Positions 9,839 to 16,925 of a stretch of DNA of 36,506 bases are shown one piece after another. The notes below the pieces were generated by a model. The model saw nothing but the letters and a program-made list of their open reading frames with translations, was not told the origin of the DNA and did no database searches. Position 1 is the first letter of the stretch. The number at the start of each line of letters is the position of its first letter. This DNA comes from a virus. Lineage: Duplodnaviria; Heunggongvirae; Uroviricota; Caudoviricetes. Location of the stretch: IMG/VR virus record IMGVR_UViG_2534681651_000007, positions 1 to 36,506 of that record, one strand, 5' to 3'. The position numbers and the translations under genes are program-made.

Positions 9839-10645
9839 GTTAGCTGATTACAGGCCTCAACTGGAGGTCGTGGAGCATCGCGTGGCAGATACCGAAGATG
9901 GTTTCATGCGCGTTGCTAACGAGATTACCGACAGTCTGCTGATGGCTGATTTAACCGTCCGGCAGTTGAAGGTGATGATCGCTATCATGCGCAAGACATA
10001 CGGATTCAATAAGCCGATGGATCGACTCACAAACACGCAGATAGCAGCCATGACAGGTATTCATCACACTCATGTTTGCGCTGCCAAGCGCCAGCTTATT
10101 GAGCGTAAATTCCTCATTGCTGATGGCGTGAAAATCGGAGTGAACAAGGTGGTTTCGCAGTGGATTAGCCAGGACAGCTTAACATTAGCTAAAACAGCTA
10201 ATAAAACATTAGCCAAGTCGGCTAATGGGTATAAGCCAAGTCAGCTAAACACAAAAGACAATATACAAAAGACAATAAATACAAATACCCCCTTACCCCT
10301 AACGGGGGTGGCGATGGGCAGGTTAAACCTGAACGTCGCAAGGCAGAACGCATCGACTACGAATCCTTCCTGAACGCCTACAACACCGAAGTCGGTGACA
10401 GACTGCCACACGCTGTTGCGGTCAACGAGAAACGCAAACGCCGCCTGAAGAAAATCATCCCGCAACTGAAAACGCCAAACGTGGACGGTTTCAGAGCGTA
10501 TGTCAGGGCGTTTGTACATCAGGCCAAGCCGTTTTACTTCGGAGACAACGACACGGGCTGGACGGCTGATTTTGATTACCTGCTGAGAGAAGATTCGTTA
10601 ACGGGAGTTCGGGAAGGGAAGTTTGCAGACAGGGGGATTGCATGA
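9825..10645 (+). pseudogene. O: Replication initiator, lambda O-like, apparently interrupted: N-terminal part in one frame (9825-10373, 182 aa) and a start-less C-terminal continuation in another frame (open from 10235 to stop 10643-10645)
   Basis: N-terminal segment TVRQLKVMIAIMRKTYGFNKPMDRLTNTQ resembles the lambda O DNA-binding domain; ori iterons lie inside the ORF; the second frame has no ATG/GTG start yet ends in an ATGA overlap with the helicase gene. Frame switch must fall between 10250 and 10330, near C5 (10288-10292) and G5 (10304-10308). Confidence 0.65.
10165..10287. repeat. ori: Origin of replication: four ~17-bp dyad iterons (TTAGCC-N5-GCTTAA, TTAGCT-AAAAC-AGCTAA, TTAGCC-AAGTC-GGCTAA, TAAGCC-AAGTC-AGCTAA at 10165, 10186, 10209, 10232) followed by an A+T-rich stretch
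   Basis: Direct repeats at 21-23 bp spacing read directly; architecture matches lambda ori embedded in the O gene. Confidence 0.8.
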
Positions 10646-12018
10646 GACAGGATATCGAAGCGAGCGTTATCGGTGGCCTGCTGATTGGTGGATTAACACC
10701 AACCGCCAGTGACGTTCTGGCAACGCTGGAGCCGGAAGCGTTTTCAATTCCGCTCTACCGGAAAGCCTTCGAGGTTATCCGCAAGCAGGCGCGAAACAGA
10801 AACCTAATCGACGCGCTGATGGTTGCCGAGGCGTGCGGAGAGGAGCATTTCACGTCAATCCTGATGACCAGCAAAAACTGCCCGAGTGCCGCAAACCTGA
10901 AGGGATATGCCGGAATGGTCGCGGATAACTATCACCGCCGCCTGGTGCTGGAAATCATGGATGAAATGCGTGAACCAATTCAGAGCGGAACCATCGACGC
11001 ATCGAGTCAGGCGATGGATGAACTTGTAAAGCGTCTTTCAGCCATCAGAAAGCCCCGTGACGAGGTTAAACCGGTACGGTTAGGGGAAATCATCACTGAC
11101 TACACTGACACGCTTGACAGGCGTCTGAGGAGCGGAGAAGAGTCAGATACCCTGAAGACCGGAATCGAAGAACTTGACGCCATCACCGGAGGGATGAACG
11201 CAGAAGACCTGGTGATTATCGCCGCTCGTCCTGGTATGGGTAAAACCGAACTGGCGCTGAAGATTGCCGAAGGCGTTGCAAGCCGCGTTATTCCTGGTTC
11301 TGACGTCCGGCGCGGAGTATTGATTTTCTCGATGGAAATGAGCGCATTGCAGATTGCAGAGCGAAGCATTGCCAACGCCGGGAGGATGTCGGTTAGCGTG
11401 CTACGAAATCCTGCATCGATGGATGACGAAGGCTGGACGCGTGTTGCTAACGGCATGAGTCAGCTTGCAGATTTGGATGTATGGGTAGTCGATGCCTCGC
11501 GGTTATCGGTCGAAGAAATTCGCTCAATCGCAGAACGGCACAAACAGGAAAATCCAAACCTGTCACTCATCATGGTGGATTATCTTGGCCTGATTGAGAA
11601 GCCGAAAGCAGACCGCAACGACCTCGCAATTGCTCACATCTCAGGAAGCCTTAAGGCGATGGCGAAAGACCTGAAAACGCCTGTTATCTCCCTAAGTCAG
11701 CTTTCACGCGATGTTGAGAAGCGACCAAACAAACGCCCGACAAACGCAGATTTGCGTGATTCAGGAAGCATTGAACAGGACGCAGACTCAATCATCATGC
11801 TCTATCGGGAAGCGGTATATGACGAGAACAGTAGCGCCGCACCATTTGCTGAAATCATTGTGACGAAAAACCGTTTTGGCTCACTTGGTACGGTTTACCA
11901 GCGGTTCTGCAACGGACACTTTGTTGCATGTGACCAGGATGAAGCCAGACAGATTTGCACAGCATCAAATGCGCCTGCTGCGCGTGGCAGACGATATGCA
12001 CAAGGGGCGGACGTATGA
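10642..12018 (+). CDS. Replicative DNA helicase, DnaB family (P22 gene 12-like)
   Basis: 458-aa ORF with Walker A ([12 protein letters not shown]) and DnaB-like motifs; start overlaps the O C-terminal stop. Confidence 0.92.
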
Positions 12019-12045
12019 CCATCTACATCACTGAGCTAATAACAG

Positions 12046-12072
12046 GGGCTATTTACACAGTAGCCCTTTTTT
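12046..12072 (+). terminator. Rho-independent terminator (GGGCTA stem, 9-nt loop, T6)
   Basis: GGGGCTATTTACACAGTAGCCCTTTTTT read directly downstream of the helicase gene. Confidence 0.65.
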
Positions 12073-12284: not shown

Positions 12285-12311
12285 CACAAAAAATCATCGA
12301 TGGAGAGTGAT

Positions 12312-12650
12312 ATGGACGAATCAAGAAAGCAGTTTGAAGAAAGTTGGTTGCGACGTGGAGGCGAATCTTCAGACCTTATCCGTTACCCTGAAAATCACCA
12401 TGAAATTGGCAGCGGTAATATTGGTGGTCAATACGTGATGGACGATGTTCAAGGCCACTGGCAAACGTGGCAGGCATCGCGAGCAGCTATTGAACTGGAT
12501 ATCGACTGGCCCGAATCGAATGACGACTTTTGGAAAGATGGTGAAGAAGGTGCTTATGCGATGGGTTATGAGGATGGGCGTGACAAAACGGTAATAGCAG
12601 TAATGAAAGCTATCAGAGCCGCTGGAATTAAAGAGAAGAATTTTCGATGA
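12312..12650 (+). CDS. Hypothetical acidic protein (start uncertain: 12300 or 12312)
   Basis: ORF whose stop overlaps the ninB start (ATGA); GGAGAG Shine-Dalgarno upstream of the ATG at 12312. Confidence 0.7.
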   Translation: MDESRKQFEESWLRRGGESSDLIRYPENHHEIGSGNIGGQYVMDDVQGHWQTWQASRAAIELDIDWPESNDDFWKDGEEGAYAMGYEDGRDKTVIAVMKAIRAAGIKEKNFR

Positions 12651-13057
12651 AGCAAACAATCTTCCTCCGAACTAAGCAACAACAGCAAGCTGCAATAAAT
12701 GCCATCCTCGCAACACCACTCGATAAAGACAAGCCAGTCACCATCCGCATTACTGACTACAAGCGCAACCTTGACCAGAACGCAAAATTTCACGCGATGG
12801 TCGCAGATATCGCTAGGCAAGTTCAGTGGCGCGATAAATGGTTAAAACCAGAACAATGGAAGGTTTTGTTGATAAGCGGTCATGCAGTGGCAACGAAACA
12901 GGAAGCTGATGTTTTACCCGGGCTTGAAGGCGAATACGTCAACATTCGCGAAAGCAGCGCGCAGATGAGTGTGAAGCGTATGGCAAGTCTGATTGAGTAC
13001 ACGACAGCATGGGCTATTGGTCAGGGTGTCAGATTTACCGACAGGAGGTATGAATGA
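12647..13057 (+). CDS. ninB: NinB-family recombination protein
   Basis: 136-aa ORF; central motif [22 protein letters not shown] resembles recalled lambda NinB (RSLDQNRKLWACLGDVSRQVEW). Confidence 0.8.
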
Positions 13058-13236
13058 GGCGACAGCGACGAAGTTTCACCGATATCATCTGCGAAAACTG
13101 CAAATACCTTCCAACGAAACGCTCCAGAAATAAACGCAAGCCAATCCCCAAAGAATCTGACGTAAAAACCTTCAATTACACGGCTCACCTGTGGGATATC
13201 CGGTGGCTAAGACATCGTGCGAGGAAAACAAGGTGA
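13054..13236 (+). CDS. ninE: NinE protein
   Basis: 60-aa [54 protein letters not shown]... essentially as recalled for lambda NinE. Confidence 0.9.
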
Positions 13237-13406
13237 TTGACCCAAATCGAAGTTACGAACAAGAAAGCGTCGAGCAGGCTTTAACGTGCGCTAACTGCGG
13301 TCAGAAGCTGCATGTGCTGGAAGTTCACGTGTGTGAGCACTGCTGCGCAGAACTGATGAGCGAACCGAATAGCTCAATGTATGAGGAAGAAGACGATGGT
13401 GATTAG
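13233..13406 (+). CDS. ninF: NinF protein (GTG start overlapping the ninE stop)
   Basis: [57 protein letters not shown] matches recalled lambda NinF; GTGA start/stop overlap. Confidence 0.85.
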
Positions 13407-13788
13407 CCGATACGGACAAATAACGTTTAAACATTTTCAAGACAATCCAACATGGGCTGCTGCGGCTGGATATGACTTTAATTATTTTGATTGTCTGTCA
13501 GTCGCATGTATAGCAACTACCAATGTTGCTAACAATATAATCGATGAATTCTTAGATTTTCCAGACTATCAGGTCAGAGAGTTGCCTGCATTTTTTGTGA
13601 AAGTATCTGTTGCTACAGCTCTGTTATTTATTTTGTTATTCGCATATCCATTGCTTGCCGTATTTGTTTATGTGAGATGCAAACACTCACAAAAGGAATA
13701 CAGCGGAGAGCATACCGAAATTACCAGCCAAAATATGCGTGTGTGGTTGAGGAGATGCCAAGAGAAATGGGGAAGACGTCATGGCTAA
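13396..13788 (+). CDS. Hypothetical membrane protein (about 130 aa) in a low-GC insert within the nin region
   Basis: GAGGA Shine-Dalgarno 7 nt upstream of the ATG at 13396; hydrophobic segment FFVKVSVATALLFILLFAYPLLAVFVYV; AT-rich relative to flanking nin genes; 3' end overlaps the next gene. Confidence 0.55.
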   Translation: MVISRYGQITFKHFQDNPTWAAAAGYDFNYFDCLSVACIATTNVANNIIDEFLDFPDYQVRELPAFFVKVSVATALLFILLFAYPLLAVFVYVRCKHSQKEYSGEHTEITSQNMRVWLRRCQEKWGRRHG

Positions 13789-14071
13789 CCTACGCAAAGA
13801 AGCGCGTGGCAGAGAATGCCAGGTACGTATTTACGGTGTATGCAATGGCAATCCTGAAACTACAGTTCTGGCACATTACCGGATGGCTGGAATTTGCGGA
13901 ACGGGAATGAAGCCTGACGACCTGATCGGCGCATGGGCTTGTAGCGCGTGTCACGATGAAATCGACCGACGTACCCATAATATCGACAACAAAGACGCCA
14001 GACTTTACCACCTCGAAGGCGTGATCAGGACGCAGGCGATACTACTGAAGGAGGGGAAGATTAAGTCATGA
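13781..14071 (+). CDS. YbcO-like (DUF1364) Cys-rich nin-region protein
   Basis: MANLRKEARGRECQVRIYGVCNGNPETTVLAHYR...CSACHDEIDRRTH resembles recalled DLP12 YbcO. Confidence 0.75.
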   Translation: MANLRKEARGRECQVRIYGVCNGNPETTVLAHYRMAGICGTGMKPDDLIGAWACSACHDEIDRRTHNIDNKDARLYHLEGVIRTQAILLKEGKIKS

Positions 14072-15778: not shown

Positions 15779-15994
15779 ATGAAATCAATGGACAAAATCT
15801 CAACTGGCATTGCCTACGGAACATCTGCTGGTAGTGCGGGATACTGGTTTTTGCAGTGGTTGGATCAGGTCAGTCCGTCACAGTGGGCTGCGATTGGAGT
15901 GCTTGGAAGCCTTGTGTTGGGTTTTCTCACTTATCTGACAAATCTGTATTTCAAAATCAGAGAAGACAGACGTAAGGCTGCGAGAAGTGAATAA
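15779..15994 (+). CDS. S: Pinholin, phage 21 S21 type, with dual-start motif (MKSM...)
   Basis: 71-aa [72 protein letters not shown] matching recalled S21. Confidence 0.9.
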
Positions 15995-16491
15995 TGTCGC
16001 CATCATTACGCAAGGCTGTTGCAGCTGCTATTGGTAGTGGGGCTGTTGCTATAGCATCAGTGTTGATCACTGGCCCAAGTGGTAACGATGGTCTAGAGGG
16101 TGTCAGTTACATACCATACAAAGATATTGTTGGTGTATGGACTGTATGTCACGGACACACCGGAAAAGACATCATGCTCGGTAAAACGTATACCGAAGTA
16201 GAATGCAAAGCCCTCCTGAATAAAGACCTCGCTACCGTCGCCAGACAAATTAATCCGTACATCAAAGTCGATATACCGGAAACAACGCGCGGCGCTCTTT
16301 ACTCGTTCGTCTATAACGTGGGCGCAGGCAATTTCAGAACATCGACTCTTCTTCGCAAAATAAACCAGGGCGATATCAAAGGCGCATGTGACCAGCTACG
16401 TCGCTGGACATACGCTGGCGGTAAGCAATGGAAAGGGCTGATGACCCGTCGTGATATTGAGCGTGAAGTCTGTTTGTGGGGGCAGCAATGA
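15994..16491 (+). CDS. R: SAR (signal-anchor-release) endolysin, phage 21 R type
   Basis: N-terminal weakly hydrophobic Gly/Ala-rich segment ([20 protein letters not shown]), lysozyme E...D...T motif; start overlaps holin stop. Confidence 0.9.
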
Positions 16492-16925
16492 GCAGAATAA
16501 CCGCGATTATCTCCGCTCTGATTATCTGCATCATCGTCTGCCTGTCATGGGCTGTTAATCATTACCGTGATAACGCCATCGCCTACAAAGACCAGCGCGA
16601 TAAAGCCACGTACATCATCGCTGACATGCAGAAGCGTCAACGTGATGTAGCAGAACTTGACGCCAGATACACAAAGGAGCTTGCTGATGCTAACGCGACT
16701 ATCGAAAGTCTCCGTGCTGATGTTTCTGCTGGTCGTAAGCGCCTGCAAGTCGCCGCAACCTGTGCAAAGTCAACGACCGGAGCCAGCAGCATGGGCGATG
16801 GAGAAAGCCCAAGACTTACAGCAGATGCTGAACTCAATTATTACCGTCTCCGAAGTGGAATCGACAGGATAACCGCGCAGGTTAACTACCTGCAGGAGTA
16901 CATCAGGACGCAATGCCTGAAATAA
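16488..16925 (+). CDS. Rz: Rz inner-membrane spanin
   Basis: N-terminal transmembrane helix plus coiled-coil body; ATGA overlap with R stop. Confidence 0.85.
16687..16872 (+). CDS. Rz1: Rz1 outer-membrane lipoprotein spanin, embedded in the +1 frame of Rz
   Basis: [25 protein letters not shown]... with lipobox VSAC and Pro-rich mature region; wholly inside Rz. Confidence 0.8.

Follow-up and report, generated by a model that had tools for sequence, protein, structure and literature searches.

T4 Imm and Sp are small, early-expressed inner-membrane proteins of superinfection exclusion, and P22 SieA, HK97 gp15, and RexB are membrane-located effectors of superinfection exclusion (Sie) or abortive infection (Abi). 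The phi29 protein p16.7 is an early membrane protein of ~130 aa. In phages HK97 and HK022 and their relatives, the slot that follows ninF is held by roi, while mEp235 carries an 89-aa ORF (gp051) there. The window analyzed here, a stretch of 36,506 nucleotides, is a P22-like (Lederbergvirus-type) Escherichia coli prophage with phages Kapi1 and CUS-3 as nearest relatives, and in the same slot it carries a 130-codon gene, referred to here as ORF130. No homology of its product to any characterized protein was found by Pfam, PHROG, PDB profile, or fold comparison.

The gene order around ORF130 is given in Table 1. Downstream of the DUF1364/YbcO gene follow RusA, NinH, Q, and then the lysis genes, with the lysis cassette at 15779 to 16925. 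Upstream, the hydrophobic 60-residue mini-ORF gave no match in Pfam, PHROG, NCBIfam, or PADLOC; in a set of 50,697 phage records, it is shared only by Escherichia phage Gally, in which it is unannotated. The acidic 116-aa ORF next to it has PHROG 343 (function unknown, E 3.7e-34) as its sole match and belongs to no Pfam family.

Table 1. Features of the nin region and of ORF130, with positions in the window
Feature	Position	Strand	Remarks
DnaB-like helicase	10642-12018		
Terminator-like hairpin	12044-12068		After the helicase gene
Hydrophobic mini-ORF, 60 residues	12102-12284		AT-rich, 35.5% GC
Acidic ORF, 116 aa	within 12300-12650		Between the hydrophobic mini-ORF and ninB
NinB	12647-13057		
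NinE	13054-13236		
ninF	13233-13406	+	Pfam NinF, E 1.7e-12; upstream neighbor of ORF130, same operon
Shine-Dalgarno GAGGA	13383-13387	+	8 nt 5' of the ORF130 ATG, within the ninF 3' end; part of left junction GAGGAAGAAGACGATG
ORF130	13396-13788	+	Gene for a 130-aa single-pass membrane protein, member of PHROG 2638
ORF130 start/ninF stop overlap, 11 nt, ATGGTGATTAG	13396-13406	+	Left mosaic breakpoint
Codons 9-35	13420-13500	+	Most conserved segment; acidic N-terminal domain, predicted periplasmic
Single TM helix, codons 64-93, PAFFVKVSVATALLFILLFAYPLLAVFVYV	13585-13674	+	Proline inside; Kyte-Doolittle 19-mer score 2.6
Basic C-terminal tail, codons 94-130 (R-C-K ... Y102 ... N113 ... W117)	13675-13785	+	Terminal helix, predicted cytoplasmic
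77-codon alternative-frame ORF	13677-13910	+	Chance ORF, not a gene
DUF1364/YbcO start/ORF130 stop overlap, 8 nt, ATGGCTAA	13781-13788	+	Right mosaic breakpoint
DUF1364/YbcO-like putative nuclease	13781-14071	+	Pfam YbcO, E 2.3e-44; downstream neighbor of ORF130, same operon

Start, coding frame, and composition of ORF130

The ORF listing and translation place the ATG of ORF130 at 13396, followed by 130 codons in all. A 135-aa version starting at 13381 was rejected in favor of this start on the basis of Shine-Dalgarno spacing, the N termini of homologues, and PGAP calls; the identical 393-nt gene was called by PGAP in E. coli genomes. The original prediction of a protein of roughly 130 aa with one long hydrophobic helix, encoded between ninF and the YbcO-like gene, was thereby confirmed.

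To compare the reading frames, 23 full-length copies were used, at least 96% identical and comprising 14 distinct sequences; their sources were E. coli genomes, contigs of IMG/VR, and the Klebsiella phage phiKp_30. Of the 25 variable sites, 18 were third codon positions in the 130-aa frame, and pN/pS was 0.32 in the ORF130 frame, compared with 1.9 and 4.4 in the other two frames. This pattern of variation shows ORF130 to be a genuine protein-coding gene under purifying selection. A 77-aa ORF in another frame, overlapping both ORF130 and the next gene, had also been noted; it exists in the sequence but failed the conservation tests, so that the conserved frame at the overlap is that of the 130-aa protein. 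Stop codons truncate it in 10 of 25 near-identical copies (nine retain 51 aa and one retains 23), none of the divergent homologues has a counterpart, and it sits in the frame with a pN/pS of 4.4; it is therefore regarded as a chance ORF. Several other nongenic ORFs, of 78 to 126 aa, are held by the same 4.5 kb. The C-terminal 55 residues of the 77-aa ORF do match a small PHROG, phrog_14831 (E 6e-38), but most of this ORF is read in another frame from YbcO, a gene with good support (Pfam E 2e-44), and the match is therefore best explained by repeated mis-calls over that conserved gene. Dual coding at the locus, with the 77-aa ORF as a real overlapping gene, is thus extremely improbable. Across 13743 to 14071, where the YbcO/DUF1364 gene lies, phrog_14831, phrog_19530, and phrog_7109 match only partial translations or translations in another frame, and the three look like families built on mis-called ORFs.

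The low-GC character ascribed to the insert was upheld by comparison with its nin flanks. ORF130 has 39.2% GC and a GC3 of 0.344, against 47 to 51% GC and a GC3 of 0.48 to 0.55 for ninE, ninF, DUF1364, rusA, ninH, and Q. Its GC content lies 1.7 SD under the window mean, a value equaled or undercut by 6.9% of 393-nt windows, and it is one among ~6 low-GC islands; the compositional break is real, not unique. Family members average 5.6 GC points lower than their own flanks. Relatives with 48 to 57% identity have a GC3 of 0.42 to 0.60, compared with 0.34 to 0.37 for the E. coli allele, and AT-richness therefore belongs to this allele rather than to the family. These values are consistent with a fairly recent arrival of the E. 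coli allele from a lower-GC background.

Gene cassettes between ninF and the next nuclease gene

The borders of the insert coincide with two short conserved junctions. The left one, GAGGAAGAAGACGATG (within 13365 to 13406), consists of the acidic NinF C terminus together with the start codon of the next gene, whichever occupies the slot, and is common to the window, lambda, HK97, mEp235, and the L004 locus. The right one, ATGGCTAA, is the start of DUF1364 or NinG and also forms the ninG start in lambda and L004. Homology to HK97 and mEp235 stops at 13398 to 13404 and restarts exactly at 13781. In lambda, ninF overlaps ninG directly, likewise by 11 nt, in agreement with the earlier statement that lambda has no equivalent. 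ORF130 is not a standard lambda nin gene (ninA to ninI): the lambda nin region has no such gene, and lambda is missing from the 16 tblastn matches.

Among 316 phage records with the same flanks, ORF130 was found in phiKp_30 only, whereas it is present, at 97 to 99% DNA identity, in 37 of 5426 complete E. coli genomes, always 3' of ninF and followed by DUF1364 or NinG. The order in L004 is ninF-ORF-ninG, and in HK97-type phages the slot is always occupied by some gene. In phiKp_30, ORF130 is followed by a 29-nt remnant of the DUF1364 5' end, which is joined to a second copy of the ninF-end motif (locus L001, 4582 to 4620); roi and DUF1364 come next, so that two cassettes stand in tandem. Since phiKp_30 has both, ORF130 and roi are not functional substitutes. 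The compared gene orders and junctions show that lambdoid and P22-like phages fill the slot between ninF and the nuclease gene that follows (DUF1364/YbcO or NinG) with any of several alternative cassettes, ORF130 among them, and that these cassettes are exchanged at GAGGAAGAAGACGATG and ATGGCTAA. The locus is a case of classical lambdoid mosaicism at gene boundaries, with ordinary accessory content.

The insert that had been suspected of being acquired is thus a discrete, horizontally exchanged cassette of foreign composition that encodes a membrane protein. The opposing view, that it is a standard conserved nin gene of uniform composition, holds in part. Elsewhere among the lambdoid prophages of enterobacteria, homologues with 48 to 57% identity are found at the same ninF/ninG position, and the composition of some is host-like (GC3 up to 0.60); PHROG 2638, the family to which ORF130 belongs, is therefore a recurrent though sporadic nin-region gene, and only the E. 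coli allele is a compositional outlier.

Two further arrangements were observed at ninF. A prophage of E. coli E2348/69 (L100, 815 to 1527) has ninF, a truncated HNH endonuclease gene, a second ninF fragment, and then ORF130, while in a Dryocola prophage (L006, 359 to 1084) the ninF frame is fused to a 241-aa HNH/AP2-like ORF. Taken together, these gene arrangements suggest homing-endonuclease traffic inside ninF. Near-identical copies of ORF130 in three IMG/VR prophage contigs (L023, L028, and L034) are shortened to 111 or 120 aa, with part of the basic C-terminal tail lost, which indicates that the gene occasionally decays in prophages.

A crude consensus scan, which leaves expression from the prophage possible, detected no plus-strand promoter- or terminator-like site flanking ORF130, and counts of such sites were at or under shuffle expectation. 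Because no signals of its own were found and its start and stop overlap the neighboring genes, ORF130 is taken to be translated within the delayed-early nin transcript. Its location within the delayed-early nin operon agrees with what had been predicted. The protein would then be made only on read-through of that transcript, i.e., during lytic growth or induction.

PHROG 2638 and the predicted topology of its members

ORF130 matched phrog_2638 with an E value of 1.7e-54 (residues 9 to 127 on profile positions 2 to 120 of 120), and all 115 of 115 aligned homologues matched the same family. PHROG 2638 is phage specific and is catalogued without a function; word-indexed and exhaustive HMMER searches gave ~126 clusters at 90% identity and 45 representatives at 50%. 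Every source naming a member calls it hypothetical, including RefSeq for the near-identical proteins WP_000237093/94/96 ("hypothetical protein"). The phiKp_30 product (gene phiKp30_350) is 96.9% identical to ORF130. The closer relatives are all from Enterobacterales, among them Escherichia, Klebsiella, Enterobacter, Citrobacter, Buttiauxella, Yersinia, Serratia, Rahnella, Pantoea, Pectobacterium, Xenorhabdus, Proteus, and Morganella. Farther members occur in the P1-like phage-plasmids SJ46 and RCS47, in Yersinia phage P840, and in Proteus Gorganvirus. Wider members, from Kagunavirus (where the gene overlaps the helicase gene end), jumbo Dickeya phages, and N4-like Alteromonas phages, were confirmed with an HMM built in this analysis (E 2e-8 to 5e-50). 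The expected architecture was found, namely the N-terminal motif F..P..A...GY.[FP][NS]..DC.S, one TM helix, and a basic C-terminal tail within ~100 to 135 aa. The genes are always co-oriented and tightly packed in early or DNA-metabolism gene arrays, and a search of family neighborhoods for a conserved partner gene found none.

The ORF130 protein matched no Pfam, NCBIfam, or PADLOC family, with no PADLOC match at E values up to 1, and had no match to LapA_dom (PF06305); a PDB sequence profile search returned nothing meaningful. A 15-bit match to ATP-synthase-c was discarded as TM noise. Among the 115 relatives, matches to LapA_dom, KleE, HemY_N, Cpta_toxin, and a nematode GPCR family were all sub-threshold, covered only TM-plus-basic sequence, and were set aside as compositional; those to LapA_dom occurred in 34 of the 115 (best E 0.001) and were confined to the TM and basic segment. 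No literature was found on the motif, on PHROG 2638, or on a nin-region membrane protein at this position, and neither the text nor the supplements of the Silas et al. accessory-gene screen contain the ORF130 sequence.

The best-conserved part of the protein, codons 9 to 35, carries the motif T-x-K-H-F-x-D-N/R-P-x-W-A-A-A-A-G-Y-D-F-N-x-x-D-C-x-S with a mean column conservation of 0.81. Across 115 sequences, H13, F14, G25, Y26, F28, and D32 are invariant, and C33 is present in 114. This segment is followed by a variable linker, a conserved V-R-E-L-P motif, the TM helix, and the basic tail. The mean hydrophobic stretch in the family is 27.6 aa. The tail opens with R/K-C-K/R, and C95 is found in 113 of the 115 members, Y102 and N113 in 110 each, and W117 in 114. 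None of the 115 has a second TM-grade segment; helix 30 to 53 was considered as one and rejected, since the Kyte-Doolittle 19-mer score stays under 1.6 there in every member. An AF2 model based on the 115-sequence alignment (pLDDT 87.9, pTM 0.71) comprises a small β-hairpin, two short helices, helix 30 to 53, a 42-residue helix 60 to 101 that is continuous (block-mean pLDDT 87 to 93), and helix 108 to 129. Taken together, it is firmly supported that ORF130 encodes a real, selected single-pass membrane protein.

The charge distribution favors one orientation. The N-terminal domain has a mean net charge of −3.3 (n = 115) and the tail one of +6.6 (+5 in ORF130 itself), and a bitopic N-out/C-in topology is therefore predicted by the positive-inside rule; in the 15-residue flanks of the TM helix, the means over the 115 members are −1.4 on the N side and +4.0 on the C side. 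Export of an N-terminal tail of 60 to 70 residues without a signal peptide would be demanding, and 4 to 5 positive charges together with a single near-invariant cysteine (C33) would be unusual for a periplasmic domain. The helix separates the near-invariant C33 from the near-invariant C95, an arrangement that would be understandable with both ends in the cytoplasm and a re-entrant hairpin around the proline. A catalytic or zinc site formed by Cys and His residues (H13, C33, C95, and C121) with both termini in the cytoplasm was set aside and is kept as a caveat: the wider family does not conserve H13 or C95, C121 is found in 59 of the 115, and the flanking charges favor the bitopic N-out/C-in arrangement.

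Candidate functions and comparison with known systems

Our preferred, still tentative, reading is that ORF130 acts as an early lytic inner-membrane protein whose periplasmic N-terminal domain works on a conserved envelope component, resulting in exclusion of secondary infections or a block of an envelope process, and that it is probably not a lysogen moron. The protein would insert in the inner membrane with its basic C-terminal helix on the cytoplasmic side and its acidic conserved domain (~60 aa) in the periplasm, where that domain would bind a conserved gammaproteobacterial envelope component and alter the behavior of the envelope during infection. In the version that we prefer, secondary infections would be excluded within the lytic cycle in the manner of T4 Imm and Sp, or a host envelope process such as division would be blocked. 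The strongest conservation, at residues 9 to 35 of the N-terminal domain, fits the binding of a conserved target. A role in the lytic cycle is favored over protection of the lysogen because the family occurs in Kagunavirus, Salmondvirus, and N4-like Alteromonas phages, which we take to be virulent.

The original prediction had raised exclusion or abortive infection by acquired cargo, and in the form of a prophage-expressed moron that guards the lysogen by either route, this function appears unlikely. ORF130 does resemble a moron in the Juhala/Hendrix sense in being an extra gene between genes that are adjacent in related phages and in having a composition unlike that of its flanks, its distribution is sporadic, and Sie and Abi effectors, P22 SieA, HK97 gp15, and RexB for example, are typically located in the membrane. 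Internal promoters are also conceivable, as the mEp235 annotation marks a promoter-like site inside the alternative gene of the slot. However, the promoter and terminator of its own that a moron would have for expression from the repressed prophage were not seen in the consensus scan, the start and stop of the gene overlap its neighbors, and no PADLOC model was matched. ORF130 also lies downstream of the terminator-like hairpin that follows the helicase gene, in an antitermination-dependent operon, and in the genera regarded as virulent the protection of a lysogen is meaningless.

The genes that surround family members could point instead to a DNA-related role for the basic tail, given their frequent helicase, primase, and nuclease functions. 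By analogy with phi29 p16.7, an early membrane protein of similar size, ORF130 might tether phage replication or recombination to the inner membrane, with the tail binding DNA or a replisome or recombinase component. In unrelated phages, genes for a helicase, primase, exonuclease, NinB, NinG, or HNH protein adjoin the family gene, and the strongly basic tail conserves Y102, N113, and W117. Against this, conservation is highest in the N-terminal domain and not in the tail, early arrays consist mostly of DNA-metabolism genes in any case, which makes adjacency weak evidence, no partner gene is conserved, and neither p16.7 nor any DNA-binding domain is similar in sequence or fold; a tethering function is accordingly judged improbable. 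Still a little less probable is a membrane-active toxic or lysis-timing factor without a specific target (holin- or antiholin-like, Kil-like, or a depolarizing peptide), which would fit the single long hydrophobic helix with its basic juxtamembrane residues, the weak Pfam likenesses (LapA_dom in 34 of 115, KleE in 19, Cpta_toxin in 6), and truncated alleles in some prophages that could reflect counterselection, but the Pfam matches are all under curated cutoffs and span only the TM and basic stretch, a conserved soluble N-terminal domain with invariant residues is unexpected in a nonspecific disruptor, and ORF130 is distant from the lysis cassette.

Extended from ORF130 to the whole of PHROG 2638, the preferred envelope reading becomes more doubtful, although it may merit consideration: the family might be a widespread host-takeover factor, oriented N-out, in which the motif HF..P.WAAAAGYDFN..DC binds one conserved gammaproteobacterial envelope protein, with a DNA-entry component or the divisome as candidates. 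If this were true, N4-like podoviruses, jumbo myoviruses, kagunaviruses, P1-like plasmid-phages, and lambdoid phages would all use the protein early, either to close the cell to competitors or to halt division. The family offers a lead in that it is small, compact, and confidently modeled, with a strikingly conserved 27-residue motif in very different phage types, and its host target could reveal a general strategy of early infection at the cell envelope. For the locus itself, the overlapping 77-aa ORF is removed as a false lead and the exact junctions of cassette exchange after ninF are documented. Within the lambdoid nin region, ORF130 is a typical swappable accessory gene and belongs to a class of phage genes that is mostly uncharacterized.

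Compared with described systems, the closest in position are Roi of HK97 and HK022 and gp051 of mEp235, which occupy the same slot with the same junctions in the same operon and are positional alternatives to ORF130. They have no sequence similarity to it, and Roi is annotated as a soluble DNA-binding or anti-repressor-like protein, whereas ORF130 encodes a membrane protein. With the exclusion proteins Imm, Sp, SieA, gp15, Sim, and Cor, ORF130 shows no Pfam, PHROG, or fold link. The morons HK97 gp15 and P22 SieA resemble it in their atypical composition and in being inner-membrane proteins from temperate phages of enterobacteria; they are, however, expressed from the prophage by signals of their own, whereas ORF130 is embedded in the nin operon with none of its own in the scan and, unlike them, has relatives in genera regarded as virulent. 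Like ORF130, phi29 p16.7 is the product of a small early gene with replication genes close by and has one TM helix and a basic region, but its TM helix is N-terminal and its conserved DNA-binding domain C-terminal, whereas the conserved domain of ORF130 is N-terminal and predicted to be periplasmic. T4 Imm and Sp have no detectable sequence or fold similarity to ORF130, but they share with its predicted product a small size, a membrane anchor, and expression early in the lytic cycle rather than from a prophage.
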